Positions 1 to 48,158 of a stretch of 64,000 bases of DNA are shown one piece after another. A program made the translations under genes and the position numbers. The notes below the pieces were generated by a model. The model worked only from the letters and a program-made list of their open reading frames with translations. It was not told where the DNA came from and ran no database searches. The DNA comes from Eukaryota sp. GEM-RC1. Lineage: Eukaryota. Location of the stretch: the NCBI GenBank assembly GCA_040285855.1, contig JAUFOQ010000016.1, forward strand, positions 1,488,001-1,552,000. Direction: 5' to 3'. How positions within the stretch are numbered: the stretch's first letter is position 1; each line of letters starts with the position of its first letter.

Positions 1-116
1 TAGAGCAATAATTCGAATCAGTCAATCTATCAAGTAACATCCAGTCAAAGAGTGATACCAGGAACTTGCGGAAAATAGTTTCAGGAGGATCCTACAACAG
101 TAATGAAGGATATGCC

Positions 117-269: not shown

Positions 270-306
270 TGAATAAAGAAGATTGTGTTATGGCTTCTCC
301 AAGTGT

Positions 307-12206: not shown

Positions 12207-13689
12207 CTGAGTTTAGGAATGGCTGTTCAGAAGATGGAACAACTCAAAAGGTTCCCAAAAAAGTATGCGTCCAGACAAAATATGAATTTGTAACTTACAA
12301 ATTTAAGACTAAATCCAAACGACTTCATCCCTATCCAGTACAAGATTGCGTTTTAATTAATTACGTTTTTCCACATTAACCTTCACACCAATCTTGCACA
12401 ATTTCTCAACTAAAGGAGAGAAATGGAAAGGCATATTTCCATAAAGGAAAAACACAATACGGTTTTTTCCTTTCAGACATAAAGAAGATGTTAAACAAAA
12501 CTTCTTAAGAAATCTCCATAATTTTTTGATTCATCAATCTTCTGTACATGCCATATTTCTGATATTAACTTGAACTTCTGGGAAACAATGTTCTAGGAAC
12601 AAGGCTAGGTTTAATTTGTTGATACTTCGGGAAAGTGTTAAACGGGGTTCCATATCTACATCACTAGTCCTCCTTAGGAAGACAAAGCTTTAACAAGGTT
12701 CGATTCTAAGGAATCTTGTTTTGATGACATTGAGTTTTAGACTATTTATTGCATTATATCTGCCATAAAAACTGACAGCTTTTTATAAAAACCAGGACAA
12801 TGAACTTATACTTATAACAATAATTCTTGTTGTTGTAAACACGAAGTATTTCACTGTTTTAACAATGTGTTCCACCATATTTGCTTTGGGCCGTTGGTCA
12901 TCTCTGAACCCTCTATTTGGTGACTGAAAATCAAATAATGACGAATTCCTTTCGTTTTTATAGGCTGATTCAGTATGACCTGTGATACTGTGAGCTATAT
13001 GTAATTTGTTAGCCAAAGTAATTCCCATTATTAGTATAGTTACAAAGTCTGTTTAATTCATTTGTATGAACATCTTTTTTTATACCAGAATGTATCAATT
13101 TGATTCAACTGCGAATAAAGATCTTTACCAACGGAAGATCATTGATATGGACAGACAAAGCAAAAATTTCAGAAGCAATAAGTTTTGTGCACCGAATCAG
13201 TAAGAAGTGGTTCAAACCCTACAAAACTTGTAAAGAGATCGAGATCAGTCACACTTTGGTAAATTGGAATTCTTGTGCAAATTCAATTTTAAGATTCTTA
13301 AGTATAAAGCATTCAAAAATCTCCCAGTAGCTGTACAACTGTTGGTAGTACAGTCCATTCTTTATTTAAACTGGTCGTGGAACACATATTTAAGTGATGG
13401 CATTGTCGAAAGTCAAATGGGGCTTTCTAACAGCAATTAGTCTACTAACGAACATCTAAAACTGGTCTAGAGTTATCATATACACGTATTATACAGATTA
13501 TTTCACTTATATCACAATCACAACTGAATCACAAGTATGCTATCAAGTGTTTGGTTTGGGAACTTCTATTGGTAATGGCAAACAAATTCTTAGTAAACAT
13601 ATTTCATTTTCCTTTTGAATATTTGCTTTGCTTCAAAATTCAACCACTTTTTGTGCTAAATCTATACTATACTTTCTTTTTCTTTTCGA

Positions 13690-14065
13690 ATGGTCATCTG
13701 GAAAAGGCTGAACAGCGAAAGTGTTCAAATTATGTGGATGCTTTGCAGAAGCTTAATGAAAATCTATATGCTAAATTTTCATTTGTTCCATTTGCCATTT
13801 CAATTTTTGGTAATATTGGTCCAGCTGGTTTAAAGTTTTTCAGTGATTTTAGTCTTTTATGTCGTTCTAATGGAAAGGTGACTACAATGTAATAGCGCTG
13901 TATGGATTAATCGAATTATGTTCGCTCTTTATAGAAGCATTCCCAAATATTTATGTTCCATTTATTCGAAGTTGTAGAGGGACAATTTCCGTGTTGATGT
14001 GGAGAATTTAACTTCTTTCATTTTCTGAATTAGTATGTATTAATTTATTGTTGCAAATAAACTCT
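13690..14065 (+). mobile_element. Non-LTR retrotransposon 3' relic (RLE domain)
   Basis: LEKAEQRKCSNY...FVPFAISIFGNIG...WINRIMFALYR followed by AATAAA; same pattern as 1655-2095. Confidence 0.6.
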
Positions 14066-15163: not shown

Positions 15164-15342
15164 GCCTAAAATCGCTACGGTACGGAACATTTGCGTTCCA
15201 TGATTAAAACTCATGAATGCATACTAAAATAACTGGGTTTATTCTTTAAACAGAGCTACCAAATTCTCCTACAAAAGTACAGTACATTACTTGTTCTATA
15301 TTTTAAGAATAAAACCAATTGTTATGTTATGTACACAGATAT

Positions 15343-15780
15343 CTAAAAATCATTCCGTATCCGCATCGCCAGAGCCATGTCCTTGGGCATAATAGTGACT
15401 CTTTTGCGTGAATTGCACATAGATTAGTATCCTCGAATACACCAACTAGATATGCTTCAGCAGCTTCTTGGAGAGCGCCAATGGCAACGGCTTGAAACCG
15501 TAACTGGGGTGAATACATCAAACAGCAATCATACTTCATTACCAAACTCTTGGGCAATCTCACGAACTAGACGTTGGAAGGGAAGCTTTCTTATCAGTAG
15601 TTCAGTACTCTTTTGGAACTTTCTGATTTCGCGGAGGGCAACAGTTCCTGGACGATAACGATGAGGCTTCTTAATACCACCAGTAGTTGGTGCAGCTTTA
15701 CGAGCAGCCTTGTGAGCCAAGTGTTTTCTTGGTGTTTTTGTGGAGGTCGTCTTTCTTGAAGTTTGCTTGGTACGTGCCAT
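15343..15780 (-). CDS. H3: Histone H3 with a divergent tail; 31-nt intron at 15504-15534; one missing A near 15403
   Basis: MARTKQ...[43 protein letters not shown], intron GTATG..CAG, then LRFQ...[11 protein letters not shown](R)VTIMPKD. Confidence 0.95.
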
Positions 15781-16581
15781 GTGTAGAGAATAAGCAAAAG
15801 AGAAAATGAATTTAGTAACAGATCTCCAGTTTCACGAAGTTTGAATTCAAAACTCATTATCTTAATGGTAGTTTTTGCCACATGTTCTGTTTTGTTTCAT
15901 AAAAGTTATGGTACCATTATGTTAGCTTACGATTTATCAGAAATCAATGTGTTCTAGAAAATTCTGTAGGAGACAGAATCCGTGAAAAACAGGATTGATT
16001 GGACAATCAAAAAATTGTCGTGTCTCCACAAATTCCCGTTTCAGCACTCAAACCACCAATAACATAAACTGCTTCTTTGATCTAGCTTAACTGGTCCATG
16101 TTTTCTTTCTGTTTCGTTGTTGTCATCCAGTAATCGCGTAATTTATCGGTTTACTTCGTCTCTTCTGACGTGTATGAGTTTCAATTCCGTATTCTACCCG
16201 TTTGAGTAGCTGAGATTGATCTCCGGTGTGTAAATCTTCTAGGTCGGACTGTATTCGTATCACCAGTCCCACAACACATATGATGTTCTTTCATGTGTTT
16301 TGAATGCTTCGCATCTTACATTGAACATCATCCCTTCCCTTCCAGACTTGTATTTAACTTCGTCTATGTTATTCATATGTATAGATGCCATACAATCTTG
16401 TTTCTTCTGCATTTTCCTCCAATAAATCTGTACAAGAGTCTATGATTTATCAACTTAAAAGGATATAGAGCAATAATTCGAATCAGTCAATCTATCAAGT
16501 AACATCCAGTCAAAGAGTGATACCAGGAACTTGCGGAAAATAGTTTCAGGAGGATCCTACAACAGTAATGAAGGATATGCC

Positions 16582-16734
16582 TCAACAACTTTCAGCCAGA
16601 CTATTGTAGAGAGTATCAAGCAAAGCATAAGTCTTTTCATCAAGTCCATTCTGTTCATTGTCCATGAACAATGAGATTGCCTCTTGAACCTCCTTGGTAG
16701 AGATAGCAGTTTCAGAAACGATGGTTTCAATCAT
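16582..16734 (-). CDS. Duplicate of the 50-aa small ORF (P10A change)
   Basis: Same frame and stop as 117-269. Confidence 0.4.
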   Translation of the reverse strand: MIETIVSETAISTKEVQEAISLFMDNEQNGLDEKTYALLDTLYNSLAESC

Positions 16735-18124
16735 TGAATAAAGAAGATTGTGTTATGGCTTCTCCAAGTGTCATGTAAGCATTCCTAACACTCATGTTTT
16801 GATATTGCAAACATGTGTTCTGTACAGTTCCTTTATTGGGTTAGTCATAAATCTCATCTATTTCTCGTGATCGAATACACACAACAACAACAACAATCAT
16901 GGAAGAGAACACAGAAGAGTACTAGAGAAAGAGAATGGTCCACATAGACAAAAACAGTCGCCAATGCTGTACGATTTCCTGACGCACGACATCTCAGAGC
17001 TGCGATCTTCCTCTAGTCCAGAGCTGTGGGTGATGACTGCTCCATCAATCTGGCCTCGTCCATACCCCACAATCATCACACTGACCGACACGCTTTCCAG
17101 CTCACTAGTCAATGTGGCTCCGTCTAGTGGAAGACAGCTCATCGTCGATAACTGACACGTCATTCCAGCATACATACACAGGCTCCCGCAAAGGGTGTCC
17201 ATTACAGACAACTCTATTGGATCCGTGAGCGGCATTTCTGATGAAAATGAAAAGTCCATTTCTGCGTGTCAGATTTCGGGTTTTTCTATTGTAAATCCTC
17301 CAGAACGATGACTTGTGGACAGTTTTTTAGTGTATAAGTGTACTTCGACTATGTGCATGTGTTCGTTGTATTGGAAAACGTAAATGTTGTTTGCTTGCTT
17401 AGATAGAGATTTTGACCATTCGACCAGCTTTTCACTAAATGTGTGGTTCTTCGGATGCTATGACAAATTCAATATCCAAAATGTACACATTTCTCATTAA
17501 CCGGTAGGATCTAGAAGTTGTCCAAAGAACAGTTCATGTTGCAATCAATTCCCTCAAATGACTGGACAACAAATCTAGGAACACATAAACACACTTTTTC
17601 TTTTAAGTACTAGTAAGTCGTAGGTATTTCGGTACTTTTGGTTTAAAAATCCAATTTAGAAAAAGTTTATAGATGAAGAGGACAAAAAGCTTGGATTTTA
17701 AAAATCGTATTAGCTTGGCTAAAATTGATCGTCCCGCTTTTTGTGCTTTCTTGATGGATGTTTCTAGTGATTCGGCTTCAGCACTGTTTTCTCGTCATTT
17801 TCAGCAATTTTGTTTCAATCTAAAAAATCATGAATGGCTGGTAAACATGCGACTAAGATTGGGCTCCATTGGTATATTACAAAAGTGTTATCGCATTTGT
17901 TCAAAATCTGTGAATGCCACGCTCAATCATCTTGTTAAATTGTAGCAAATTTATTTCATATGAGATCTGTAATCCACAAGTGTTCGTGATCAGTGTTTAT
18001 CTATGTTCAGATCTAATGGTTTCCACAGCAAAGTTGAACCTCTTTTATTTGCTTTTTCTGATTCTCTTATTCGGAACAATAGTCGTGGTGAATTAATTGG
18101 ACCTTAGAGAAAATCTCAAGCAAT

Positions 18125-18565
18125 TGTACTGGACTTTACTACAGTTGATCCTTGTAATTCTACTTCTACCGAAAAGTACTTAATGATGAATTTCCGGTTA
18201 TTCACCATGCTGAAGACAAGAAAGTTCTTCGATACAGGGATTGTTTTGAAAAGTTAAACTCTCAAAGACACAATGCTTTTGTTTTTCAACCTTTGCAATT
18301 TCTTTTATATTGAAATTTAGGTTCTGCGGCTAATACTAGTAACTTCTTTTTTCCTTTAAGGATTTGGGTAATGATTTCGGTAAAAAGTTCAACGGTGGCT
18401 TTTGGAGAGATCGTCTAGTGTTTGCTCTAGTTCGTTCAATGAACAATTACTTTGATGATATCTTCAAGAGTTTGTTTGGTGGTGGTGAAGGGTGTGTGAT
18501 GGGGTAGGTTTGTCTGTCTATTGTATTTTCTTTAGTGTAAGTTTATAGAATAAAGCACTTTTTTT
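18125..18565 (+). mobile_element. Duplicated copy of the non-LTR RLE relic
   Basis: Part of duplication copy 2. Confidence 0.6.
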
Positions 18566-21495
18566 ATCTATCGTTACCATTATATTGTCTTAAAGGGCTA
18601 TCAACATTGAGTATTTGCGTCTAAATTATCCCATTTTACAGTCGAAATACTAAACCAAAATTTTCAACTTGTGTTTCATATTATTGAGAGGGATTTCCAT
18701 ATGCATATGGTTTGTTTTGTCGCTTTGCAGAAATCGTGTGAATAAAAATCAGAATTGAAAGTTCGTTCTTTCGTAGAAAATCTCTGGTAACTGTACGAAT
18801 TCCAGAAGTAATCGTAACTCCTAGAATTCCAGGAATTACTGTAGCAATCGAAATTGTATGATTTCTAAGAATTCCTGATCCAAAAACCCTGTAATTGAAA
18901 AGTATTGTTTAAAACCTTGTGAAGTCTTGCTGCTAAAGTAGGTGCTAATACATAACACGGCGTAACACGTGTTAAGTAAGAAGATATAGTTTTCCCACAT
19001 CAACACGTCACAAAGGATGTTGTCTGTAAAGCCCAAACACAAATCCATTAACCCGTACAGTACAAAATCACTAGTTTTAACCTACTCGACCAATATTTCC
19101 ACAAATTGAAATTGTAAATTGAACAAATCGAAACATAGAACACAACTTTCATACAGTTGTTTCAAAATATCAGCATAATTTCAACACTTACGATGTTCGG
19201 CCCTTTTAAAAGACCAGTAAAATATAAAATATCAATTTTAATAAGGTGTCTACTTGTTGAAACAACAACTGAAATATTAGAGGACTGTTAAATCAAACTT
19301 CTAAACGATCTACCCAATTTTCACAAGTAATTGCATTAGTCAAAATCATACCCGGAAAATACAGCCACTCACTGAAAAAAATTACAGAATTACAGAAATA
19401 CAGAAAAATACACTTAACACACATAAATACAAAAGAACTCCACCTAAGACAACTTTCACAAAAGTCATGGTGAACTTATTCTGTTTTAAAGTAACAATGA
19501 CTAAAATAATATGAGTTTCACAACCAAGCTAAACATAACATAACAACAAAATACCCGAACAAATATCAGAAAGCCATTATTTAGTTTGCCGTCTTTTTGA
19601 GCAGCTGCCTTTCCAAAACACCTTTTCAACCATTCCAAAGATTGAGATTCCCCAAAGACCTCAAGAGAATTGGGTTATTTTTCATCGTCAGACGAGTTTG
19701 TGACAACAATATCTAATATATTCATCAAGAAGAACTACTGTACTTGCATTTTATCTTCCAATAAAACACAGTTGCATATGCTACCGTCGTTGCCATCATC
19801 AAAAACTGCTTTGTTTTCGAGGAGAAGTACATCAACATGAGTTCTTTGAGCACCCTATATGTGTACATTTTCATCCAAAAATTGTTCTGGTACCGTTTTA
19901 TCCATAAAACTACAGAAAATACAGTATTTACCGAGACTGAGAAAATACAAATAATACAAAAAAATACAGTATCTGTATTTTCCAAGTATGTTCAAAATGG
20001 CAACAACAAGTCTATTCGTCGACTTACAAACCTAAGTTAGTAAGTACATGTAGTAAGTTGCTCTTTTATCAAGACCTGTTGAAACTGTTACGATTTTCCA
20101 AGCAGAAGTATTTCAAATGAATTCGAAAGTGCCTTACCAAAATTTGAAAAGTTGTGATTCAATGATACTATTAAACCGATTATTTAGAATGTTGGTGGAC
20201 TCAGTCTGTTGTACTCCAATTATTTAGTTAAAGAACTCTCATCTTTCTTTCTTGTTATCCGTTCTAAAAGCAATTGTGATTTGAAGCTGAATGGATAATT
20301 GATTTTATTCAAAATGTACAAAGTTTAAAAAAGATAAACACAAAAAAGTCTTTAAGTTTTCAAGCGAAGACTCCATTAATAGCTGATAGTCCTCTACCAC
20401 TTACGATTACAACCATCCCTTGTTGGAATTGGTAGTAGTTGGCAATTGGATCCCCCACTTTGTTGACCCCCACGTTTCAGAGTTACTAAGTGAAAATGAA
20501 ATACCTTCCATGGCTCGATCTCTTCGTGACAAAGGTTTTGTTCTTCTAAATTAAATTAAATTTCTTTTCTTTTTTCTTGGAGACAGAAGCGATGCACTTC
20601 CGCTCGGAGTCCAGATCCTAGTTTCTGACCTAAACCTTCGAATTGCTCCATCCACAGATCAATCTTGAAGTTGAGCATCTGGGACAAACTTCTTGAATCC
20701 TTAGAATGGGATAGCAACATCGACTTCCAGTAGTTCAAACCTTGACTTTTCCTTGACTTTTCCGTGAATGATAATACTGACTAAAAGACCAATCTGTCCT
20801 TTATCAATGATTGGCTTTAAAGTTCCACAGCACATACAGTTCCAAATGGGCTTACCTGCAACGGGTGGTAAGAGTGTCGTATGTTATCTGGAAAATAAGT
20901 GAATGAACCAAACTGCGATCGAATTTCCACAAGTAGTTGACAATTGGACGGAATGGAATCAACGCATTTCTTCATTGAATTGAGAGAGAAACATCAAAAT
21001 GTTCGAAAGACCACCATGAAATATTAGAAAAGCAATTTGTTTTAATAATTAATTCTTATCACCTTCTTTTAATTTGAAGCATTCACCAGGCCCTTGTTCT
21101 TTTTGAAGTGGAGACTCATGTTTTTTGAAATCAACATGTAGTTCACTCATAATACACTCACTTCAGTGTACTTACTCAGAAACTTCAGTCCAGAGTTATG
21201 AATACTGATGTTAATTTTTGTATTTATTACAAATGTAATAGATCAAACAACTAAAATTTGATATCATTAAAACAACATCCAAAAAAAGAGTTATGAATAA
21301 GGTAAATGACTAAATTTCTTGCTCCGAAATAGCCGTTTCTATTCTGTTGCGTATTATAAATAACCAACGGTTAAATACCAATAGCTGTAGACTTCAAAAA
21401 AGAACAATCATAAACCAACCTATTTATCGTTGTTGAATTGAAGCTCTAAGAAACAACGATTAATCACAAACACATAATCAAAAAAACACTAAAAA

Positions 21496-24589: not shown

Positions 24590-25009
24590 TAAGTGTTGAG
24601 AAAAGTGTTTAGAGTCTAAACTTTACTAAGGATTTCAGTTCGGATGCATAAACCTCCCAATTGTCTTTTCCCCAACATTTCTTTTCCCCGTTCTGTTTTT
24701 CAGTTTTTCCTCTCTCTTATGGGTTTGCTGTTATATCTGTATCATACACGGAACATTCATCTAGAACCTGACGATCTCAATCCTTCTCGTAGAACATACT
24801 CTGCTGTTCATCTCAATAAAGGCGTATCTGATCCGGTGAAGTTCTTATCATACTTTCACGTCTGAACTTTTCGTGAATCTCTGATTCTTCTTTTCATAGT
24901 TTTGCAAAAGAAAGCGAGAAACTGGACTCAACAGAGTTTTATTCGCCATGACCACTTCTGGCGTTCAGTTCGGCATCCCTCGGCTCCATCAGTGGTTCCA
25001 TTAGTGACT

Positions 25010-25300
25010 GAACAATCTATAAGGACTCCGTCTTTGCCAAAATGCTCTCAGACTCAGGACTCATGGAATAACATGGCTACGAAACCTATCTCCGCTTGTT
25101 TAACAACATGGCTAATTTTATGAGAAAGAGAAACAGCATTATATTCCTTGATGTGACTCCACAGGAATCTCTTGACAGAATTAATTAAACAAGAGAATTA
25201 AACGAGATTTTGAGTCCAGTGTTTCTCTAGAGTATTTCCAGAGCCTCTATGATGTATATCATGTGTTTGTCGAGTTATTCCAGTTATTTTTGAAGATATT
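25010..25300 (+). pseudogene. Deoxynucleoside kinase C-terminal pseudogene fragment
   Basis: KDSVFAKMLSDSGLME*HGYETYLRLFNNMANFMRKRNSIIFLDVTPQESLDRIN*...ESSVSLEYFQSLY; in-frame stops and no P-loop seen. Confidence 0.7.
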
Positions 25301-25329
25301 GCTTGAATATAATCTTAATTTTAACAGCA

Positions 25330-26060
25330 GACGACAGCTTTTTATGATAAATAAACCAACAAACTATTGCTAAACACTAAATCATCAGCAAATAGCAATA
25401 ATCTCTCACATATCTGCCAAATGGATGGATGAGAGAAGGAGAGAACTAGTGTTAACGGAGAGGGCGATATAAGAGCGAGAAAGGTCAAGGACGGACCTGA
25501 AAGTACCAATATAGGAAAGGGGAAAGGCTGCAACTTCAAAACCAGCAGTTAGTTACAGACATCATCAGGGGAGATGTTCATAAGAATCAGATGGTCATTT
25601 CAAGCCCATCAACAAGGGACAACTTTAGAACACTGTCAAGGAGCTCCAGGGGTTTGTTCCATACAATGTAAACAGATCTTTATTGTTTTGTGAAATAAAA
25701 GCTATGACTGACGTGCATCTACTGATGAGACTAGTGGGTTATCATTGTTTATCAAGCAGGAGAGAAAGGGATTCAAGTACACAATGAGAAATCTGACATC
25801 ATTCATGATGTTTTAGTGAACAAATAAGAGCTGGGAATGAAGTTTACAAGACAGAAAGTACATCTGTGATGACTGAAGGAGCATCATCCCAAAGGAAGAA
25901 TTTCAAAACACTACTGAAGTCGTCGTCCGTTTTATCACTGTTAGTGATGTCAGGAATTTCAGGATGTTGAGAAAGAGATTCATGAATGTAAAGTAGGAGA
26001 GAAACACCACGATGGAATCATCCCACAGTCAAGGGGAGAAAGTCAGTCAGTCCCAAATTC
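25330..26060 (-). pseudogene. Decayed gene, possibly BTB/POZ-domain
   Basis: TDFSPLTVG*FHRGVSLLLYIHESL...FSSVLKFFL with stops and frame changes. Confidence 0.3.
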
Positions 26061-26334
26061 CACTAGCAGGGATTGTATACTGTAGCTACCATATACAAAG
26101 ACGTTGCCACTAAGTCAAAGTTTGAATTAAGATGATTAAGATGACCCATCGTAAATCTTATTCATTCTTCTAGCGAGACCATTGGGATCATTCAAACAAT
26201 TCTGAGAACAACAACCTCTAGTCTACTGTACCTATTTACCAAAAGATTCTAATCATTGATGTAAAATATTTTTCTGAAAGTAACCTGTAGTTGAAATACA
26301 AGAAAATCCACAATATTTCATAAATTTCTTGAAC

Positions 26335-28132
26335 ATGACTACCACGACCTCCACGGTCACGTGTTCACTTGCCAAGTTTTTTGACCCGCCAGCTCGGGCA
26401 GTGATGAACAGGCAATTTCGGTACCTTCGAGACGTTGCTGTTCACTCAACTTTACTGGCCCGGGTGTTTGTGCTCCAGCACCCCCACTTAGCACGCTGGT
26501 TGACTGACCAGCGTTTCTGGTACCAGTGCTTTGGGTTCGTTGCTCACTCTGAGCCGAAAGTAAACCGCCCCTTTGAGAACGACAATGGAGTGTACACTGC
26601 ACTGCATCTGTCGTCGAGTCTTCCGCCAGTATCCATTTGGCCGTTCCCCCCTCTTGGCCGACACAAAACGACACGCTGGTGTCACTCACAACTCTTGAGT
26701 GATAGGTCACGCCAGTTGTCTGAAGCTTTTCAACAACTGATGGCCGATGGTCCAGTCAGTTGGAAGCTGAACTTCTTCCGGACCGCTGCTGTATTCCTCG
26801 ACTGCCCGACCCCTAAGGGATACGCTTCTGCTGTCGTACGTGGTGCTCAACCTGGAGCATCACTGCAGCAATGGTGGAATGCTCATCACCAACAAACTCT
26901 GGCCACCTTTAATCACTTAGTCGGGGATGTTGTCCTGTTCAATAATCTATTGACAGAACGGTCTGTTGCCCTGAATGAAACGAACGCCTCATTTCTATTC
27001 GCAGCTGGATTGAACCTGTTGTCTGCTCTCGAGGATGCTGCGCCAGATTGTATGCGCCGCCATGCTCTAGTTCCAATGGCCAGCTATGCTCCAGTGTTTG
27101 TATCATTCTCTCAGGAAGTGGAGAAACACTTCAGAGAGTTCAACTTCTCAAGGACTCTCAAAAGTAACCCACTGAAAACGTTTAGAAAACGCCCCCGTTT
27201 CCAGACTTACACCCTGGCCTCTGATGGTGTAAGTTTGAGGATAATTTTTCCACAAAGCCGAAAAAACAAGGAACCGTACTACCAAGGAGCAGTTTGAGTC
27301 AAGGAGGGCAAGTGGCTCCGAAGACTTCAAGGTTAAGTCCCGAAAGAGAAAGTGTAACCTACAGAAGAAAGTGGCTCCGTTACGACGACGTGCGAGAACA
27401 GCTGATTTCGAACCTCCTCCTGATGAAGATTGGTTATGGTGTGCAATTGATCCCAACCACAGTAACCTATGTGGTTGGTCTATTGGAACCAACACTGACT
27501 ATTTATTGGACTCTGGGATTACACTGGCACCAAAAGCCAAGGCTATCAATACTGTTATGTTTGGTGCTTTGAGCAACTCTACGTCAAACACCTATTCCGT
27601 TCAGAACATGTACCTGTATCTGCTCGAGATATCGACCACTATTGTTGATCAAAATATGAGTAAGAACAGTCTAGAACGGTGTTTATTAAATGGGAACAGA
27701 CCCAACCTACGGAGAAACAAGTTCGATTTCTTCATAAGAAAACAGAAACGATTTGATTTATTTGCTCAAAATTTGAAAAATATGGCACAAGGAAGCCAAA
27801 TCAGAGTTTGGTTTGGGACAGGAGGTGCTAGCCCATCTAGGCAGCAAGTGAAGTCTCCAAGAAAGGGATTCCTTGAATATCTCAAAAGATTCTTTCCCGT
27901 TATTATGGGCGATGAATACTTCACTTCCGCAAAAACTAACTGCTGTAAAGTGAGGCATCAGTTGATATATCATGAAGTTGATGGAGTAAGAAGAGTGAAT
28001 CACGCCATATTTCGATGTCCAACATGTGCTCAGGTTTGGTCAAGAGATATTTCTGCCTCCAGAAATCAACTTGAGATCGCTATAGAGGGTTACTTATTTG
28101 GAACTAGGCCTGAAGCTTTCCAACGTACTTAA
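26335..28132 (+). CDS. Fanzor (eukaryotic TnpB-like RNA-guided RuvC endonuclease), Fanzor1-like, ~600 aa; one +1 frameshift at ~27245-27297
   Basis: N-terminal TVTCSL, SDGVSL strand, RuvC-I WCAIDPNHSN, RuvC-II GDEYFTSAK, zinc finger NCC...RCPTC, RuvC-III WSRDISASRN, terminal RPEAF; 5' half visibly more GC-rich than its flanks. Confidence 0.88.
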
Positions 28133-28236
28133 TTATCTATGTATTGGCCGATGAAGTTCAAGTTACCTTGAATGGAGGCCGTAATGTGGTGCTTCAGCAG
28201 AAAAGGGATGTATATGAAGAAGCTTTCTTTGAAAGT
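28110..28236 (+). ncRNA. Candidate Fanzor omegaRNA scaffold
   Basis: Nested stems CTGAAGC(28110-16)/GCTTCAG(28191-97), GGCC/GGCC and TTCAAG-TTAC-CTTGAA, plus a CTTTC-TTT-GAAAG hairpin; overlaps the ORF 3' end as in TnpB/Fanzor loci. Confidence 0.5.
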
Positions 28237-28292
28237 GTAAAGTATGCATTTCTTGGAAAATCCACAGTAGACAGCTCCTCTATTGAAACTTG

Positions 28293-29685
28293 ATGAACTC
28301 GGACGATGCTTCTTTAATTCATACTGTTGCTACTCTCTCAATTGATTCTTCTCCTGATTTTGCAACTATTTTTGAGTCATTTTCTTTACTCAATTCCGAA
28401 AGCTCCAACAGTGATATTCTCAAGGCTATAGTTACTGTTCGACACATTTTGGCCTCTGAAGACAGTACTCATCTTGAAACAAATATATCTATTTGTATCA
28501 ATCTTGGACTCATTCCCAAACTCATTGATTATCTAAAGAGTGATGATTCACTAATTCTTTTGAATCAGCCTGGGTATTAACCAATATTGCATGTTCATCA
28601 GAACCAGATCATATCCAAGCATTAATAGATTCCGGAATTCTGGCTGCACTCGCTAGTTGTATGGTGCACTCAACCGATGCGAATGTTAAAGACCAATGTT
28701 GCTGGGGACTAGGTAACATTGCTGGTGAGGATGCCCAGTGTGCAGGTCTGTTCCTTGAATCTGACTATATTAAAGCCATTGCTTTCACTGTTAACTGCTT
28801 TATCGAGGTTGGTGATTGGGAAGCTCTTTCTAATGCTGTATGGACTGTAATGAATATCTTTCGATGGAAGTTGTTTGATGACTTAGAGGTCTACATTCCT
28901 GTGGTATCTGCTTGTCATAACATTCTTCCTCTGCTTGACTCATTGCTTCGTAATGATTACATTTCGTTAGTAGAGTCATTTCTTTGGATCTTTGCTTTCT
29001 TAGCAGAACAGTTTGAAACGGTTTATGATTTGTTCATCACCAAAGAGATGGCCTTTTGTTTCGCTACATTGATACACCATTCTAACAACACTATTAGTTA
29101 TGTAGCATTTAGATTTCTTGGAAATCTCTTTACTGGATGGTGTCCCTTTGTAGTTGAAATTCTTGACAAGCTAGGCCTCGTGAGGTCTTTATTTAGCATG
29201 TTAGAGAACTCAACTAACATTTTCCACAAGAAGGAGGTGCTTTGGTTTTTCAATAATGTTATTTCAGACTCTCAGGAATCACTTCAGTTTTGTTTTGATA
29301 AGGACATCATTCCAGTGGTTATTAAATATCTTACTCATGGGGAACATTCTTTGTTCATGGAAAGTGGATTTTGTATATTGAATACGATTAATGACTGTTC
29401 TTATGAACAACTCATTTTTTGGCTCAAAAAAGTGTGTTTGCTGCTGTTATTCAAGGGTTGTCAAGACCTGATAAAAGAGCTGTTGGTCATTCTATCAGTA
29501 TTTTAACAATATTTGCTCGTCGATTGATTGAAGTACCAGAACCAGTTCCAAAAGAATTTCCTATTTTGAAAGCTCTCTTTAAAACAGCAAAGGTAATGGA
29601 GAATGTTAAAGAATTAGCAAATGACAGCAAATCAAATTGTACACTAGCACATGAGTTTCTTAAAGAGTTTTCGGCATTAGTTTAA
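28293..29685 (+). CDS. Importin-alpha-like ARM-repeat protein, paralog 1 (no IBB domain; frameshifts at ~28560 and ~29418)
   Basis: ESAWVLTNIA, DQCCWGLGNIAGE, LSNAVW, FRFLGNL and KKEVLWFFNN ARM motifs. Confidence 0.85.
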
Positions 29686-32400: not shown

Positions 32401-33858
32401 ATGGCTGCAGCTGGAGACGATACACACTTTGATGAAGTACTTGAGGAACTCAATGGTGTAACAATCCAATCCACGTCTCATTCTCAAGATGCTAATAGTC
32501 TTTCCACTCATGTATATATCCTAAAATCATCAACCATTGAATCACAGGTGCTTTCGGCTGTCAAAACAATCCGCCAAACGGTATCAACTATCAATGATTC
32601 TGACTTGGAAACCAACATCGCCTATTGTATCAACCAGTATGAAATCTACTCTTAATCTTATCTCAGGGGGGTCATTCCTTTCCTCACTTCACTTCTTGAA
32701 TCCTCTAATACAGAGCTGTGTTTTGAATCTGCCTGGGTCTTGACCAATTTTGCTAGTACTTCAAATTCTGCCCACACCCATTCTTTGATCAATGCTGGAG
32801 GTTTAGAAGCTCTCTTTAAATGCATGATCAACACTACACACACCAATATCAAAGATCAATGTTGCTGGGGATTAGGTAACATTGCTGGTGAGAATGCACA
32901 GTGTGCAGAACTTTTCTTAACTCATGATTACATTAAAGCCATTGCTTCTACTGCTCATCTCTTTATTGAATTAGATGATTGTATTCCTCTTTCTAATGCC
33001 ACGTGGGTTATGGCCAATATCTTCAGGTGGAAGTTGTTCGATGATCTGGACATCTACGCACCACTAGTAGAAGTGTGCAAAAAGATCTTTTCAATGATGT
33101 CTAAGTATATGGAAGGAGGATTCCACAGTTTAGTAGAATCTTTACTTTGGGTTTTTTGTTATCTTGGAGATGTCTTTGAACAATCATACCCCTATTATCT
33201 CACAAAGGAATTGACCTTTGCAATTGGAGCTTTAATTCATGATTCCAATGCAATCATAAGTAATGTTGCCTTGAGATTTATTGGCAATGTGTTCTCAGAT
33301 TGTTGTCCTTTTATAACAGAAATGGTGGATGACTTAGATCTAATTACTCCTCTTTGTAAAATTCTAGATCCTTCAGGTCCTTTAAAAAAGCGGAAAGAAG
33401 TTCTCTGGATTTTTAGTAATATATTGGCGGAGTCTGCAGAATGTGTAAACTTTTGTTTCAACAAGGGTCTCATTCCAATTATTATTAAATACCTTACCCA
33501 CGATGACCATTCTTTGTTCATGGAAAGTGGATGGTGTGTCTTAAATACTGTTGACCTTTGTTCTTATGAACAACTCATGATCTTGGCTCAAAAGAGCGTG
33601 TTTGGTGCTATTATTAAAGGATTGTCCAGGCCCAATATTAGAGCTGTAGAACATTCAATTAAAATTTTGTCAATATTTGCCCGTCGATTGGTTGAAGTCC
33701 GAGAACCAGTTCCAAAAGAACTTCCTATTTTGAAAGCTCTCTTTAAAACAGCAAAGGTTATGGAGAATGTTAAGGAAATAGCTGATGGTGACGATATCTA
33801 TTACAACATTCGCAATGCTGCTGATGAATTTCTTGTTGAATTTGCTTCATTGGCTTAA
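32401..33858 (+). CDS. Importin-alpha-like ARM-repeat protein, paralog 2; 30-nt intron at 32637-32666
   Basis: Removing GTATGAAATCTACTCTTAATCTTATCTCAG joins CINQ|GVIP...ESAWVLTNFAS...DQCCWGLGNIAGE in frame. Confidence 0.9.
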
Positions 33859-34577: not shown

Positions 34578-36072
34578 TAGTGTTGCACCTGGGCTAAGCC
34601 CTTTTGTTTCAGCCCACCCAATCAAATCACTAGCCAGCTCAGCTCAGCCCACAATTTCATCAGCCCAGCCCCCAGCCCAAACAAGTATACATTGATATAG
34701 TACAGTGGTGTGTAACTTTTTAGCTTATGGTTGTTCAGTTCTTTACATTTGCTATCAGAATAAACAATATATCCATATTGTCTGGTTGCAATATCAACTG
34801 AAAATACATGTAAATGTATAAACTAAATTAATCTACTTCACTTTCTTCATCATCATCAGGTTCTATTTTTTAAAGACTTCCTTTCTCGTAAACCTTGTTC
34901 AAACTCCACTTTCATCCAGTATCTCAAGCTCAATAAAGCTCTCAAAGACTCAGTGGAGAACTTATTTTGACTTTGGTGAAGTAACAGCAAACATGAGGTG
35001 GTGTGTCATCTATTATTGTTACGATGTCTTGGCGAGAGGGCATTACAACGAAAGCAAGATTGGGAATTTACTGAAAGAAATGAATTAGAGTTCATACAGT
35101 CTACACTGAAGTACAGTACATCACAACAAACAAATTGATTCATGTAATTAGTAGTTTATTCACAATAGTATCTTTTAACTATTGTAATGACTGTTGGTCA
35201 ATGGCATAACGATACTTACAAAGTTGATACATCTATGTACTGTTGATAAATGTTGCAATAAAAATAAAGAGTTGTATGCAGGGGCTGTCAAAATTGAATT
35301 GGACTTCCAATTATTGCCAAATAAATTATTGCAATAATTGATTGATGCCACTTACAGAATTGCCAATTAATTGCCAATTAATAAAGTCCACAAGAACATT
35401 AATGACTAGACTCGTTTTTATTGTAAAACAGAATAAATATTGTACAGAACATCAAGAATGACAAATCAGCCTTTCTTTACAATCATCAAACCCCATAACG
35501 CAAAACTTGGCATCTGTGACTTCTTCTATAACCCCTAATTTGACAATAGGCGATGTCAGAAAACATCTCTGTTTAACATTGTTCCCACTGCTCGGACTGT
35601 AATAATCTTCTGTCGGAAGGGTAGTCTGTATAAATGCAAGAGCATAAATTCTTGAAATGTAACATGTATCTTTGGGATATACTAGTAGTTGCATTTTGCA
35701 GTATTTACGATAAACACTAGAGTCTGTGGAAGACGAGGTGATTCATAATTAGTTTCTGTAAAATGTGGTCAGCCACATTCTCATTTCCTCAAATTTAGTA
35801 GTTTTTGGTGAGTTTCTACTATATTTATAAAAATTGGTTAATTGGCTTCAATTAATTGCAATTATTGCAATTATTGATTGGTACGGCTTTTGATGACCAA
35901 TTAATTGCCAATTCAATTTTGACAGCCCCTGGTTGTATGGGCTGAAGGGCTGAGCCCAGTGAATTGTCAAGCCGCCCGGGCTTAAGCCACAAACTCGCAA
36001 GACCAGTCCAATTGTACTGTAGACCGCCAGGCTGGGCGGCTGGGCTGGGGCTGAAATTGGTGCACAACACTA
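34578..36072 (-). mobile_element. hAT element (deletion derivative) with a transposase dimerisation-domain remnant
   Basis: Ends TAGTGTTG/CAACACTA; perfect TSD CTCAGAAT (34570-77, 36073-80); AGCCC/GGGCT subterminal repeats; minus-strand QNKFSTESLRALLSLRYWM at ~34915-34970. Confidence 0.9.
35279..35931. mobile_element. hAT-type MITE nested inside 34578-36072
   Basis: 24-bp perfect TIR CAGGGGCTGTCAAAATTGAATTGG; TSD GTTGTATG (35271-78, 35932-39). Confidence 0.95.
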
Positions 36073-36923: not shown

Positions 36924-39098
36924 CTAAACATTTGAAGGACTTTCAGGAGAATCATCAATCACAATGTCAGGACAAGAAGCTTCCGGAGTCACTTTGAAGA
37001 ACAAAAAGGCCGCAAAAAAGAAAATAATTCCAGAAACAAAAGATGAAATAATTCGAGGCCCTGAATCCAAATTTGCGAAATCTGATAGCAATACTTTCCC
37101 AAACACCAACATAAAGATAACTAAACCTGCAACTCTCGCCTGAGCCAGGGCTTTAACAAAGCCAAACACAACAAACATTAAACCAATAACTCCAGCAATT
37201 ATAGAAACAGCGAGTGAGGCTTGCATATCTGTCTTGTAATGTGCAAACCAAGAGTACCCATCAAGGGAGAGAGAGAAAACAGAAAAGGCTGCTACTGTTA
37301 AAAGAAGAAACTTGCCAAGATTGTAATTGTTAAAGTTTCTTGCATGAGGATCTCCACCAAGGTTGATAATACTTTTGTAGAACATGGCAATGTTGAGGGC
37401 GATGATAGCGAAACTACGACTATTTAAGAGATAAATTTTAAAATGTTTGGCAGGTTCTGCTGCAAGAGCAATATAACAAATTATCATGATGATAAAGATA
37501 ACAAAATTTGGAATGAATAAATACTCAAAAACACGAGATTTCTTTTCCAACTTTGAAAAAATAGCAGAAAGTGCAGCTAAAATGATAACAACCATGGATA
37601 CAAAGATATAAGCCCTTCCAGAATCCTCAAAAGTATTAGCAAACCTTGTCAAGAAGGAGATTAGAACAAGGAAAGGGATAGTTGTAAGTGAAGAGAACAG
37701 CCCCCAATTGTCAAGATCTTTCTTGTTGATGGCAGAGCTAGGTGTACAAAAGTAGACTAAGCAAATAGATGCGATAACAAAGTAAACAGTGGAAAATTCT
37801 TCAAATGTTGAATAGTATGATGAGATTATCAGCAAAACTCCAGATACAAATGATAGCAATCTACAAGTCAAGTCGATAGTCAACCTCATCTCCTGCCTAT
37901 CTTTAATGAAATCAAAGTGATTGAAAATGATGGCCACGAGGACCACCACCAGACCACTAGAGTGGATAGACAGGAATCCAAAGGCAGTAGCAGAGTAAAT
38001 GATCATTAGGAAAGTAAGAGAATGACGGAAATAAGAAAGGTTCTTGTTCAAGAAGAAAAGAACGACATGTAGTAGAGCCATTACAATCACCCAAGCACAA
38101 GCAATCAAATTTGATTGATGAATGAAGGCCAATACGTAAGTGAAGAAGGTGGATCCAAGAATTAAGAACAAAGAAGAAGGAATCGAGTAAGAATGTTGGA
38201 AGAAGAATGGGATGATGGTGAAAGAGATAGCAGGGATCAATAGACCTACAACACTAATGACAGAGAAAGGATCATCGTAACGGAAGAGAAACATGAATCT
38301 GAGAGCGATTGAGGCAAGAACGACTGATCCAAAGGTCCAATCCCAGTTGTTGATTGAAGCCATGATGATACCAATAACAATAATGATTGCTTGATAGAAC
38401 TCAAGGAAGTCGGCGATGGTGTGGAAGGCCTCACTTGTAGGGAGAAGAGGAACAAGAAGAGAGAGAGCAATGGCAAGGGAACCAAGGAAGGTGGTCTTTT
38501 GAAAGGTGGCTGAAACACAAGTAGCAGACATTAGCACTGCAAGTAGAGCTAGAGCCAGTACTGGAGAGAACATTTGATCAAAGACGTCAGTTTGAGACAT
38601 GAAGAGGATGGTGGCGATAGAAGTGATACCTAAGCATTGAACAGCTTCACCGAGTTTCAAGTATCCTCGGAGAACCAGATAGTGTCCATACAAGAACACA
38701 GCAAGGGAAATGATGGTAAATACAGAGAACTGGAGGACTACGGAGGTGCGAAGAACATATTGGAAAACAAAGACAAGAGACGAAAGGAGGAGGAAGGCAC
38801 CAAACACCAAGAGCAGTTTGCGACCAATCAATTGCTCTACCCACTCAGTTGTGGGATCTGATGAGGGAGATTGTACAAGAGCGGTAGTCTCAGAGGAAGC
38901 GTCAAGAGATGGGTCTACATTTGCAACAGTAACCGGCTGTTCGGATAGGTCTGTATTAAGAGGGTGGTAATGCTGAGATTGACGTTGAGAAGGCAACAGT
39001 AATCCTTCGAGCCTAGCCAAACGTTGTCTTTGGTCATAGACCAATCCAAGGGCCAGTAACGCAACCAGCCCAGGAACGAATACCAGAAGGGACTCCAT
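36924..39098 (-). CDS. DUF2339-like polytopic membrane protein (bacterial-type family)
   Basis: N-terminal TM + RLARLE, WVEQLIGRKLL..G, and C-terminal RVAGLVIF..GKVLLSDFANLDSGPRIISSFVSG. Confidence 0.75.
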   Translation of the reverse strand: MESLLVFVPGLVALLALGLVYDQRQRLARLEGLLLPSQRQSQHYHPLNTDLSEQPVTVANVDPSLDASSETTALVQSPSSDPTTEWVEQLIGRKLLLVFGAFLLLSSLVFVFQYVLRTSVVLQFSVFTIISLAVFLYGHYLVLRGYLKLGEAVQCLGITSIATILFMSQTDVFDQMFSPVLALALLAVLMSATCVSATFQKTTFLGSLAIALSLLVPLLPTSEAFHTIADFLEFYQAIIIVIGIIMASINNWDWTFGSVVLASIALRFMFLFRYDDPFSVISVVGLLIPAISFTIIPFFFQHSYSIPSSLFLILGSTFFTYVLAFIHQSNLIACAWVIVMALLHVVLFFLNKNLSYFRHSLTFLMIIYSATAFGFLSIHSSGLVVVLVAIIFNHFDFIKDRQEMRLTIDLTCRLLSFVSGVLLIISSYYSTFEEFSTVYFVIASICLVYFCTPSSAINKKDLDNWGLFSSLTTIPFLVLISFLTRFANTFEDSGRAYIFVSMVVIILAALSAIFSKLEKKSRVFEYLFIPNFVIFIIMIICYIALAAEPAKHFKIYLLNSRSFAIIALNIAMFYKSIINLGGDPHARNFNNYNLGKFLLLTVAAFSVFSLSLDGYSWFAHYKTDMQASLAVSIIAGVIGLMFVVFGFVKALAQARVAGLVIFMLVFGKVLLSDFANLDSGPRIISSFVSGIIFFFAAFLFFKVTPEASCPDIVIDDSPESPSNV

Positions 39099-44015: not shown

Positions 44016-47000
44016 TTATTTACGTACAATACTTGTTAAATATTCCAAAATTGCAAAATGTTTGTAATATTTGGCAGTATCCAAAGAAGTATAACCCCAC
44101 CGATCTCTTACTAATGGATCAGCTCCATTCTCCACCAATACCTTTACAATACTCAAATGACCTCCCTTAGTCGCACAATGAAGTGGTGTAGTAGAATCGT
44201 AATTACCATAGTTAAGATTTACTCTGCTTCGAATTAACTGACGAACTTCAGACAATTCTCCATTGAAAGCAGCCTGGCAAAGACGGGATACTTCCTTATA
44301 AAGACTGGTATTTCTCCACAACCTCATATTTTTCTTAATGTTAGAAGTAAAGCTCTCCAAAGGATGTAGCAAATACTTCTGCTGCAATCGTCGGGCAAAG
44401 TCAATTCCTCTGGCGGTGATCTTAGAGTCATTAAGAGGGGGCGAATAGATAGCGATACCTAGAACATCAGGTACAACAATCAAAAGGGCTCCACTGCTTC
44501 CCGCAACTGCAGGTAAATTGATCACAAACTGCCACTCTCCAGAATAATCATACAAAGAACAACTATTCATTAGAGATAAACATGCTCTGACTGTTTGTTG
44601 CTTGAAGATACGTTCTCCAGTCAAAGGACAGACACCTCCTTTAGCTAGAGTAGCTGCGAGTATGGATAGAGAGCAAACGTTATACTCGACACTCATCAAC
44701 ATACAGTACAGCTTTAATACCTCTTGTAGATCAGTTGTGGATGAGAAGACTCCTTTCTCTCTCATTAAGTAGAGTAGTGAGTAGTTTCGATCACTGGCTT
44801 CCATTTCAGAAAGGTAGGTAGTTAAGGAATAGCCAACGTGATCGAATTTGAGCTGACCCTTAGAAGGGCAACCAGCAATCAAGTGAGCTGTATTCTTAAT
44901 GTAATCAAATCTATCAGACAGAAACTCTCCCTTTTGATTACTGGAAGCAGAGAACAAGGCACCAGTGTTACAGAAAGGGTTATGAGGTATCCAAGAACCA
45001 ATATCCAACAAAGACAAGTGATCAGAGGGCAGCCCTGAAGCTTCTCTTCCCACTTTAGAATGGTACTCCTGCTCACCTATTTCTTCCAGTGCAAGACAGT
45101 AACTAAGAACATTGGAGCAATGCTGGAGGCTAAATGAATGAGTATAGTCACCAAAGAAAGCTCTCTGACCGTCTGTAGAGCAAATCCCAACTCCAAAGTG
45201 GGAAGGATCGACTTCTGCCAGTTCTTGAATGTAGTCAGCGTTGTGACCAGTAATTGGAGTCTCAGCTACTGATTCAAATATTGCCTTGATGTTAGACATA
45301 GTATAAGGCCAATCTGGGATGACAAGGGTTCCCAACAGAGCCTTCTTAAGAATAGGAATCTCAGAACAAGCTTCCTCAAGAACTTTGTAAGGAACTTGTG
45401 AACTCAATGACTTAGCAAAGGCAGAGAGACGGTGGTCAAACTTGGCATGAAGTCCTGATCTTTCAAGAGCCTTGAGAACGTCAGACTTGGAGACTAGACA
45501 ATCGTCACTGCATTTGCAATCAAGAGAGTATGAGATGAAAGTCACGTCATAGGGATCAAACTCAGAGGACAATTGACCATCACTTTCATCAGCGGAGGAA
45601 GGTTCCGATGACGTGACCTCATTGATACTGATTGGTGACGATCTTTCAGACTCGTGATCACTATCAAACTGAAACACTCCAACCTCAGCCTCATCAATCA
45701 ACTCATGCTCATAATCCAATCGAGCCAACAGATCTTCCGGTTCCTTCTGTTCATGGACTTCTGAGTCATTTCCAGTGGTAACTGGAGACGGAGGACAAGC
45801 ACAACCACTAAAGACACGTGATTCAGTAATCTTCTCCAACAACTTCACAATCTCATCATGTCCTAAACCTTCAGCGTCCTTTAAGGCAGTGTTACCATGG
45901 ACATCCTCGGCATTAACATCAGCATCATGAGAAACAAGGAAAGCAACAACATCAACTTGACCATGACAAGCAGCTAAATGAAGCGCAGTTCGATTGTTGA
46001 TATCAGTAAAGTTAACATTAATACCTCTCGCTACTAGCCTTTGTACTCTATCTAAATCCCCAATGGCTGAAGCAAACAACAACATGGTCTGAGAAGTTTC
46101 CAATGACGTGGACTCCTTCCTCCTTGGATCAAGTTTCTGTCTGTTATCCAAAGAGTCAAACACATGGAAGTTGAACTTAGAGGCAAGTTCCATTGCGAAC
46201 TGAATTCCCTTAACGCTGTTACCGTAGTTGTCCAAAGGAGGTGAGAAGATGCAAATACCAGCAAGACCAGGGATAACTAAAAAGATACAACCACTGACAG
46301 CAGATTTACAAGGTAAACCAACAAAGAAGGAGAATTGTCCAGAGTAATCGTAAAGACCACAAGAGCTCATCAATGAGAGACAATCACGGACAGTTTCCTC
46401 TTCGAAAACTCGTTTACGTGTCAAAGGACACACTCCAGAGTTCGCTAGAGTAGCTGCAACTATACCCATTTGAGAACAAGTTAATTGAATTCCACAGAAA
46501 GAGAAGTATAAAGACAAAGTGTCTTGAATGTTAGTACCCTCAGGAAAAGCCCCCGCCTCTTTCATCATGTAGGCTAAGCAGGAGTTACGATCAGCAGTTT
46601 GACTCTCAGAGAGGAAGGTAACGTTATCAAAGCCTGCATGAGAGTCAGCTGCCAAAGAAGACCACGTTTTGATGATGTGACGAAATCGATCAAAAGAGGT
46701 TTCTTTTGTTTAATCAATGACGTGACCATGATTGCACCAGAATTGATTAAGCTAGAATGAGTTCTCCTAGATCAACACACGGATTATGTGGGAGGTTATC
46801 TTTATTCAATTGAAGCTCATTAAATTTGACTCCACTGGGTTCTCTACCAACATATCTATGGACAGTCTCTTCTGATAACTCCTCCAATGCACAACAGTAA
46901 GTGATTGGTTTGGAGCAGGACTGGATGGAGAAGGGAACTTGAGCATCACCAAGTTCAAATCGTTGACCATCAACTGAGCAGATGCTGAATCCGAAGAGAT

Positions 47001-47424
47001 TGGGATCGACATTAGCAAGTTGAGGAATATAACTGGCGACATTTCCGTCTGATATGTGAGAAACTGTCTCAAAAATATCAGTCAAAACAGAAGTGAAGCT
47101 TTTCCAATCTGGAACAATGAGTTGTTGGTCGAGAGCTCGATGTACAAGGCAAGAGTTAGATAAGAGAGTGGAAAAATCAGGATATGAGAGAACGGTGTCT
47201 TCTTCAGGGAAAAGTTCAACCAATCTAGGATCATCTGGCAGAATACCAGATTGCTCCATGAGTTCAAGGAGAAAATCAGAAGTTACAACTCCATCGTTTT
47301 CCAAAGCGAGTTTTTCATAAATACAAGTTGTTTGTGCCTCCTGCAGAGTTGAAAAGCTGTCTACATGAATGTACGACACAGAGTCATGACGTGTGGATGT
47401 AGAAGGTGAACGATTAGGAGACAT
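44016..47424 (-). CDS. GLS: Tandem double glutaminase-ankyrin protein; 29-nt intron at 46752-46780; frameshift at ~46705
   Basis: Domain 1: ASYIPQLA, SIQSCSKP, GREPSG, PHNP|LINSGAI, SCGLYDYSG, PCKSAVSG, then ankyrin repeats. Domain 2: NADYIQEL, SLQHCSNV, PHNPFCNTGA, then ankyrin repeats. Confidence 0.92.
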
Positions 47425-48158
47425 TTGCTCGAAATTTGCTCTCATCTTCAAATGACTTTTCTTACTTCAGCACTTGAACAAGAGCTTCAAAGAGTAGAAA
47501 ATGGACTTCCTCTGACTTATCATCAACTCGATACACAATCTCCGCAAATAAAGTCTGAGGTTGAATTGAACGAGTACATCAATCTTGCATTGGCTCACCA
47601 ACACGGAGTCACCCAATGGAATAATTATGCGGCCGCAGTATCATCGTCTCTGAATCTTAGAAAGAAATAATACTTGTCATCCCTAATTTTTTGGGACGAA
47701 GACCTGTACTACATTTTCCTACGCATTGCGCAACCTACGCTTTCCACAATAGTACCACTCCTTACTCCGAATGGTCTTCGCCATCTAGAGAGAACTATTG
47801 AGGATCCTATACTAAGTCTTTGTTTTGGTCTCTTCATTAATCGACTCCTCCTTTTTTTCCTTGTTCATAGACTAATCCTTATGTATTGCTCACTGTCCAT
47901 TGTTTGCTTTTGCAATATTTAGTTCTTTTTGGGTCTTCATTTTGCTATTTTGGATACATATCGCAGTTGCATTTTGTATTGGTGTAGCTCCTCTTGTTAT
48001 AAAAGGGTTGATATTTTTGCTTAATTCAACATAAACTTGTATATTACTCGTCTACAATCCTGCAGTTCGGTTAGTAACTGCTTTCTTGTGACCATGACAA
48101 TGTCCAGTGCAGAGGGAATTCGACCAGATTATAACATAAATAGAACCATCAAATCCCA

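Follow-up and report, generated by a model that had tools for sequence, protein, structure and literature searches.

Sequence alignment and predicted structure confirm that the gene at positions 26335 to 28132 (+) of the 64-kb stretch of DNA analyzed here (the window) encodes a Fanzor1 protein in which the RuvC D/E/D triad is present. The gene belongs to a multicopy family, and in our judgment it likely sits in a small nonautonomous transposon, with a guide RNA predicted downstream and a protein that would cut DNA matching the right flank. The family is a distinct, recently expanded lineage of Fanzor1 that is predicted to depart in structure at one point; it does not constitute a new type of system. 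Apart from Fanzors, we know of no Cas12-type enzymes in eukaryotes that cut DNA under RNA guidance. As a young, multicopy, 600-aa family with unbroken members and a predicted guide RNA and TAM, it is ready for assay; it would add to Fanzor1 a lineage of metamonads on which no report was found, and it tests whether the RNA-binding surface thought to be common to Fanzor1 can be rebuilt.

Fanzor1 motifs and predicted fold

The gene lies in two overlapping open reading frames, ORF1 at 26335 to 27297 (+), with an ATG at 26335, and ORF2 at 27245 to 28132. The initial annotation had joined them into a protein of ~600 aa; both frames are present and the whole frame would be 599 aa, but three-frame scoring shows that about six codons between ORF1 and ORF2 are read in the third frame, so that there are two breaks and not one. 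The features of the gene are as follows.

26335 to 27249 (+): Fanzor1 5' part, with the WED and REC domains, to the conserved WED strand after SDG (sequence, alignment, and model)
27245 to 27266 (+): junction with two one-base frame breaks, in T5 (27245 to 27249) and A6 (27261 to 27266) (three-frame scoring)
27260 to 28132 (+): Fanzor1 3' part, with the basic linker, RuvC-I, the remodeled post-RuvC-I segment, REC2 and a long helix, RuvC-II, the zinc finger (TNB), RuvC-III, and the stop
27449 to 27451 (+): RuvC-I Asp, in AIDP, of the DPN motif; aligns with SpuFz1 D383 (alignment)
27914 to 27916 (+): RuvC-II Glu, in DEYFTS, shifted beside the zinc finger; aligns with SpuFz1 E541 (alignment)
27941 to 28027 (+): zinc finger xNCC ... 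CPTC, the usual CxxC minus its first Cys, then two adjacent Cys (Pfam match and alignment)
28046 to 28048 (+): RuvC-III Asp, in RDISASRN; aligns with SpuFz1 D606 (alignment)

Rereading of the letters found in place all the motifs on which the initial annotation had relied, including CC at 27941 to 27946, CPTC at 28016 to 28027, and SDGVS at 27220 to 27234, as well as the three that carry the acidic residues. The 5' half is also richer in GC than host DNA, as had been claimed, at 51% (26335 to 27244) against 38% for the window and 37 to 46% for 16 host ORFs; ORF2 stands at 42%.

The assignment to Fanzor1 was borne out by a profile of outgroup sequences, by alignment of the triad to SpuFz1, and by the predicted fold. 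A profile built from 26 non-Skoliomonas relatives alone matched P0014, a protein identical to the two frames of the window except at the junction, at an E value of 1.3e-46. In a mixed-profile alignment, the three acidic columns fell on positions 777, 935, and 1000 of the SpuFz1 fusion chain, which correspond at a single offset of 394 to D383, E541, and D606 in the residue numbering given in the accessible text of Xu 2024 (PMC11423790). The mixed profile ranked three Fanzor1 proteins far above Fanzor2. The predicted fold of P0014 (pLDDT, 87.6; pTM, 0.83) was computed with 49 aligned rows, 26 of them from distant Fanzor-like proteins, which may pull models toward the Fanzor fold. Compared with solved structures by Foldseek, it matched SpuFz1, PpFz1, and GtFz1 at ranks 1 to 7 (E, 1e-14 to 2e-10; TM, 0.48 to 0.61), followed by Cas12f at an E value of 5e-5 and by Fanzor2 at rank 30 (E, 1.8e-3; TM, 0.24). 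The model of an unbroken relative, P0070 (pLDDT, 90.1), aligned structurally with the same seven Fanzor1 chains at Z scores of 18.3 to 20.9 over 458 to 516 residues, the next best score being 13.6. In the profile and structure comparisons that had been proposed initially, the best structural matches were thus Fanzor1, far ahead of Fanzor2, TnpB, and Cas12.

Family-model searches gave a match of ORF2 to the Pfam TNB zinc ribbon (E, 1.2e-5) at 25.8 bits, slightly under the cutoff of 26.3, and weak matches of ORF2 to TnpB models; no family was matched by ORF1. Single-sequence and family-only profile searches retrieved no Fanzor among the solved structures, and because the family-only profiles miss every solved Fanzor, the family appears to have drifted far. 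The nearest neighbors by language-model features (0.98) were giant-virus clusters carrying PF26935 and PF07282, and viral predicted structures were likewise nearest, at TM values of 0.6 to 0.7. Some of these giant-virus and environmental Fanzor1-like proteins also have a zinc pair of adjacent cysteines, but identity to them is 25 to 37% and confined to the RuvC-II/III part.

Several motifs can be compared with those of Fanzors. The stretch EYFTSAKTNCC aligns column for column with the outgroup EYxTSxxCxxC, so that the RuvC-II Glu is shifted to just before the zinc finger, a shift that is a Fanzor hallmark in the accessible text of Yoon 2023, as is a DPG motif at RuvC-I. In the latter motif the DP is kept and G is replaced by N across the whole family; SpuFz1, which is active, also has DPN, and the literal DPG motif is therefore not strict. 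Bao and Jurka (2013, PMC3627910), in the part available, describe the Fanzor/TnpB motif as D-X(125-275)-[TS][TS]-XX-C4 zinc finger-X(5-50)-RD. Its spacing, TS, CxxC, and RD are present here with four cysteines in total; the first zinc pair is xNCC and not CxxC, a form also found in some outgroup rows of the alignment. The predicted fold of ~600 aa is bilobed, with an enlarged REC, and is nearest to solved Fanzor1, as befits that class. Helices are predicted at residues 414 to 425, 437 to 445, and 448 to 476 in the REC2 region, but 390 to 413 is coil in both models; a pair of kinked REC2 helices is among the Fanzor1 features described by Yoon 2023.

Overall, the protein resembles the Fanzor1 proteins SpuFz1, PpFz1, and GtFz1, as far as these are described in the available text of Saito 2023 (PMC10432273) and Xu 2024, in its length of ~600 aa, predicted domain order, and fold, and it has in common with them the aligned D/E/D positions, the shifted RuvC-II Glu, and a C-terminal RP motif, but identity in structure alignments is only 11 to 14%. 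With Fanzor2 and bacterial TnpB it has in common the TNB zinc ribbon and the RuvC core, but their fold matches are far weaker (ApmFz2, TM of 0.24 and Z of 11.0; TnpB, TM of 0.24). The IS607 type of Fanzor2, of about 500 aa with a compact TnpB-like fold and a serine-recombinase TnpA beside it, does not fit, the protein here being longer, and no IS607 or IS200 TnpA was found among the frames scanned nearby.

Distribution of the family

A search for longer proteins found 11 full-length relatives at E values of 1e-50 or better among 1,257 candidates. All 11 are labeled Eukaryota sp. GEM-RC1, TZLM1-RC, or TZLM3-RCL, which we take to be the three isolates Skoliomonas sp. GEMRC, S. litria, and S. sp. 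RCL, whose genomes are reported in Williams et al. 2024 (PMC11316075). A profile search gave 18 matches among 7,994 candidates scored, all with the labels of these isolates, and an exhaustive search of 1.84 billion representatives gave 19 proteins at an E value of 1e-10 or better; the labels of 15 of the 19 were looked up, and all 15 were of these isolates. The first match labeled outside the Skoliomonas isolates appeared at an E value of 1.4e-8 with 25% identity. Since the labeled close relatives are all from Skoliomonas isolates, the window is likely from a Skoliomonas-type metamonad.

The closest cluster contained seven gene models on five contigs and one unrelated 56-aa peptide, and five other clusters, from the sister isolates, had 10 to 41 members each, many of them fragments. 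Several subfamilies were distinguished, and full-length copies were 94 to 99% identical within a subfamily, which points to a recent spread of the family. Near-identical models on several contigs make the gene multicopy, as is expected of a transposable element; within the 64-kb window, no second or ghost copy of the gene was found.

In a tree of the RuvC region, built from 47 rows without characterized Fanzor1, Fanzor2, or TnpB and without the rows that lacked a recognizable DP or RD (P0007 among them), nine Skoliomonas rows fell on one branch with 100/100 support and a length of 1.52. The phylogeny that had been suggested initially therefore resolved the family as one long-branch clade, but left its sister group, the giant-virus and environmental Fanzor1-like proteins, weakly supported (83/87). 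Pattern scans found no relative in metagenome contigs and none in viral contigs, and by the latter scan a viral donor is unsupported. The long branch, together with the origin of every labeled close match in Skoliomonas isolates, agrees with the initial proposal of a probably uncharacterized family from a poorly sampled lineage.

No paper pairing Fanzor with Skoliomonas or metamonads was found in a literature search whose scope mostly excluded subscription papers, and the supplementary tables of Fanzor surveys could list these proteins. One literature match of Fanzor with Fornicata concerned the snail Crepidula fornicata and was irrelevant. For transposable elements of Skoliomonas, the search returned nothing beyond the genome paper (PMC11316075), in the supplements of which, one scanned file aside, Fanzor, TnpB, and four locus numbers are absent.

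In a sister isolate, one gene model (P0011) contains a Fanzor fragment fused to the glutaminase ortholog. The glutaminase gene of the window (44016 to 47466, -) has no adjoining Fanzor, and the two species thus present an occupied and an empty site.

The two frame breaks

In three-frame scoring against ten unbroken relatives, frame 1 fits the relatives as far as the Phe at 27247, only the frame one base back fits over the following six codons, and the remainder fits two bases back. The scores of the three frames along the junction (14.8/-0.3/-5.8, then 0.4/10.5/-0.8, then -6.1/-6.1/6.9) place both shifts in base runs, and both breaks are one-base losses, in T5 and A6. The codons between the runs read STKPK here and SKKPK or STAPK in relatives. 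The strand at the junction is unbroken in the ten relatives and corresponds to strand 298 to 304 of the P0070 model, a WED strand. A lone programmed frameshift in the A run is ruled out, since the six codons between the runs fit the relatives only in the middle frame.

Genes for a ZNF598-like protein, glutaminase, Dopey, a cyclophilin-WD40 protein, an acyltransferase, and armadillo-repeat proteins are likewise split at base runs, at eight places in the window, and such splitting of housekeeping genes suggests uncorrected long-read errors across the contig. The eight breaks, which were picked by eye with three checked against a homolog and with two further breaks (LPCAT, Dopey) left out, lie in T4 to T6, C4, or (GA)3 runs; because runs of four are common, this placement is supporting and no proof. 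Eight breaks from a coding span of ~31 kb would give about half a break in 1.8 kb, and two were seen; six of the eight runs of at least five bases in the Fanzor gene are unbroken. Among the closest models that span the junction, six of six are without the same 9 to 10 residues, a pattern that a shared real lesion or a genuine intron would explain as readily as a repeated error would. The genomes of the named relatives were built from early nanopore reads, according to the part of Williams et al. 2024 (PMC11316075) that was available. Because the host genes in the window break alike, an error in the assembly is more probable than either decay or an intron of 29 nt. We consider an error of assembly or sequencing the probable cause of both breaks, and long-read errors in a true frame of 599 aa a reasonably probable account of them.

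A true frameshift in this copy, and perhaps throughout its subfamily, is unlikely; it would make the gene a dead or hitchhiking Fanzor1 derivative copied in trans. Such a lesion would agree with the bridging of six of six closest models at an identical spot, with the fragments that make up many of the database members, and with the decayed left neighborhood, where a deoxynucleoside kinase gene with several in-frame stops (24620 to 25300, +) adjoins on the left a decayed stretch that precedes the Fanzor gene. Over 1.8 kb, however, the Fanzor frames keep the triad and the cysteines intact and contain no stop or further break beyond the junction. The one-base losses in runs also resemble those in the housekeeping genes of the window, and a sister copy, P0012, appears shifted at a different run, C6 at 26646.

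More improbable still is a real short intron, the GT..AG stretch of 29 to 30 nt at 27229 to 27257 that the gene models treat as one; the spliced protein would be in frame without the WED strand, and its nuclease would be damped or changed. The stretch opens with GTAAGT and at 29 nt has the size of two likely host introns in the window (32637 to 32666, +, 30 nt; 46780 to 46752, -, 29 nt; both GT..AG and inferred from a paralog and an ortholog), but it ends in AAG, whereas these end in TAG and CAG. Exactly this stretch is dropped by five of six models, from an annotation pipeline that used RNA-seq hints (Williams et al. 2024, PMC11316075, in the part available), but its 29-nt removal fails to restore the frame in the present copy, the model of which uses another cut, of 25 nt, and in other subfamilies the models are bridged elsewhere, and in some copies only. 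Fanzor genes are known to gain introns, as the accessible text of Jiang 2023 reports, and the shortened protein still folds in silico. Against this, the stretch encodes a strand conserved in 10 of 10 relatives scored, with their residues kept in two frames, and it is strand 298 to 304 of the unbroken model.

Candidate element, guide RNA, and RNA-binding segment

The gene is flanked by an 11-bp direct repeat, 22 bases before its ATG and 123 bases after its stop, which may bound an element; the candidate features are the following.

26302 to 26312 (+): left copy of the exact 11-bp direct repeat (GAAAATCCACA), a candidate target-site duplication, with only two copies in the window
26313 to 28255 (+): candidate element of 1,943 bp, without terminal inverted repeats and with the Fanzor gene as its only gene (delimited from one locus)
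28156 to 28173 (+): predicted stem-loop 1 of the candidate omegaRNA, with a 7-bp stem and a loop of 4 nt (folding prediction)
28203 to 28254 (+): predicted stem-loop 2 of the candidate omegaRNA, a long stem that ends one base before the right repeat (folding prediction)
28256 to 28270 (+): right repeat copy (28256 to 28266) and four flank bases, together the predicted 15-nt guide (length by analogy with SpuFz1)

By itself the repeat is weak evidence. A repeat this long occurred in 1.1% of 1590 control placements at limits of 100 upstream and 200 downstream, in 6.6 and 9.6% at intermediate limits, and in 17.6% at 1,000 upstream and 300 downstream, and the limits were chosen after the repeat was seen. 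Comparison of 24600 to 26340 with 28100 to 28320 gave no terminal inverted repeat (0 matches at four settings), and a search for host sequence resuming after the right repeat, by its likeness to the neighboring paralog, was negative, with 70 of 300 shuffles as good. That the element spans 26313 to 28255 between 11-bp target duplications is, in our estimate, somewhat likely. The bases just 5' of the left repeat (..ATACAA) would hold the TAM.

Folding scores for the downstream region are modest, with z values of -1.0 to -3.5. Stem-loop 1 alone is within chance, as 30 of 200 shuffles of 28140 to 28200 fold as well; for 28195 to 28292, z was -2.42 and 3 of 200 shuffles were as good, and of 52 windows scanned 28200 to 28299 had the lowest z, -3.49, with other cuts at -1.0 to -2.4. 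The candidate RNA lies downstream of the stop and has a 7-bp first stem, as do the solved Fanzor1 RNAs (Xu 2024, PMC11423790, in the text available), and in SpuFz1 the guide comes directly after the second stem (Saito 2023, PMC10432273, likewise). The candidate omegaRNA had no Rfam match above chance, and a 59-aa frame over the hairpins (28114 to 28290) had no Pfam or Atlas match. On balance we lean slightly toward an omegaRNA scaffold at ~28145 to 28255 with the next ~15 bases as the guide.

The predicted structural departure of the family concerns the segment that follows RuvC-I. SpuFz1 has, after its RuvC-I strands, a basic stretch that we take to be a helix. The mixed-profile alignment places in this stretch the residues R387, R414, R415, and R419, which contact RNA according to the accessible text of Saito 2023 (PMC10432273). 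In the family, by contrast, the same stretch is shorter, not conserved, and predicted as coil in both models (P0014, 390 to 413, pLDDT of about 69; P0070, 400 to 421, pLDDT of 82 to 87), with no helix in either. Between 22 and 50 residues past the RuvC-I Asp, at least two Pro are present in 17 of 21 family rows against 1 of 25 outgroup rows, and mean Lys+Arg is 3.1 versus 6.8, the family rows being near-copies and not independent in both counts. The window's own protein has one Pro there. The models thus predict a family-wide replacement of the basic RNA-gripping segment by a shorter, mostly proline-rich coil, and with it the RNA would be held differently from that in the solved Fanzor1 proteins. 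It is very improbable that the protein has kept its RuvC triad but, with the RNA-linker-binding segment gone, is no longer a reprogrammable RNA-guided cutter and acts on a fixed site or structure instead: the Pro-rich, Lys+Arg-poor segment of the family rows relative to the outgroup and the lack of a helix at the segment in either model would suit this, but the WED, REC, RuvC, and TNB parts each align with Fanzor1, the lost contacts could be made up for by a long basic linker that precedes RuvC-I, and the predicted hairpins sit where Fanzor1 guide RNAs sit.

As an RNA-guided Fanzor1, the protein would, by analogy, bind RNA made from the right end of the element and be guided by the flank. A copy of the site that lacks the element would be cut next to a TAM that ends near ..ACAA and then repaired from the occupied copy, which would keep or spread the element; movement would be supplied by a transposase in trans. 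We hold it evenly balanced whether the element would behave in this way, with cutting of the element-free site, repair from the occupied copy, and transposition in trans, as other TnpB/Fanzor elements do. The left junction matches the predicted guide at 13 of 15 positions, with mismatches at 12 and 15, and if the 11-bp repeat is a duplication, this near match raises a self-targeting problem. The most specific proposal is tentative and, taken whole, doubtful: a recently active metamonad Fanzor1 that is an RNA-guided cutter despite its proline-rich strap, in an element of 1.9 kb that lacks terminal inverted repeats, whose 11-bp duplication makes up most of the guide, and whose own left end would be spared only by guide positions 12 and 15.

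The initial statement that no transposase adjoins the gene held, in that the 215 frames scanned in the window yielded no transposase family. These comprised a set of 96 (one short frame and, the Fanzor frames excluded, 95 of the 98 that are at least 85 aa long) and 119 shorter frames in four intergenic stretches. Spu-1 has 30-nt terminal inverted repeats in its available description, whereas none were found in the element here. The Fanzor1 elements MCi-2A/2D and CRe-1/2/3, as described in the accessible text of Bao and Jurka (2013, PMC3627910), have duplications of 11 to 12 bp or 7 to 19 bp and no ordinary terminal inverted repeats, like the candidate element; the likeness is one of description at one locus, where no Crypton or Helitron remnant was detected.

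Other repeats and genes in the window are recorded here in their own right. A miniature inverted-repeat element at 35279 to 35931 has perfect 24-bp ends starting CAGGGG and an exact 8-bp flanking duplication (GTTGTATG), and we presume it to be hAT-like. A 4.4-kb segment occurs twice (1 to 4407 and 16466 to 20873) with 98.8% identity and no Pfam family in its frames, and it is possibly a mobile element or a segmental duplication. The frame at 13449 to 13892 (+) has no Pfam match, and its end, to our eye, resembles the endonuclease end of a non-LTR retrotransposon. Two tandem armadillo-repeat paralogs, presumably importin-alpha-like, lie at 28293 to 29685 and 32401 to 33858 (+) and are 69 to 85% alike in DNA. 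A 724-aa membrane protein at 36924 to 39098 (-) matches DUF2339 (E, 4.6e-22), which we take to be a bacterial family, so that lateral transfer is possible. A core histone gene at 15330 to 15831 (-) is split over two frames.
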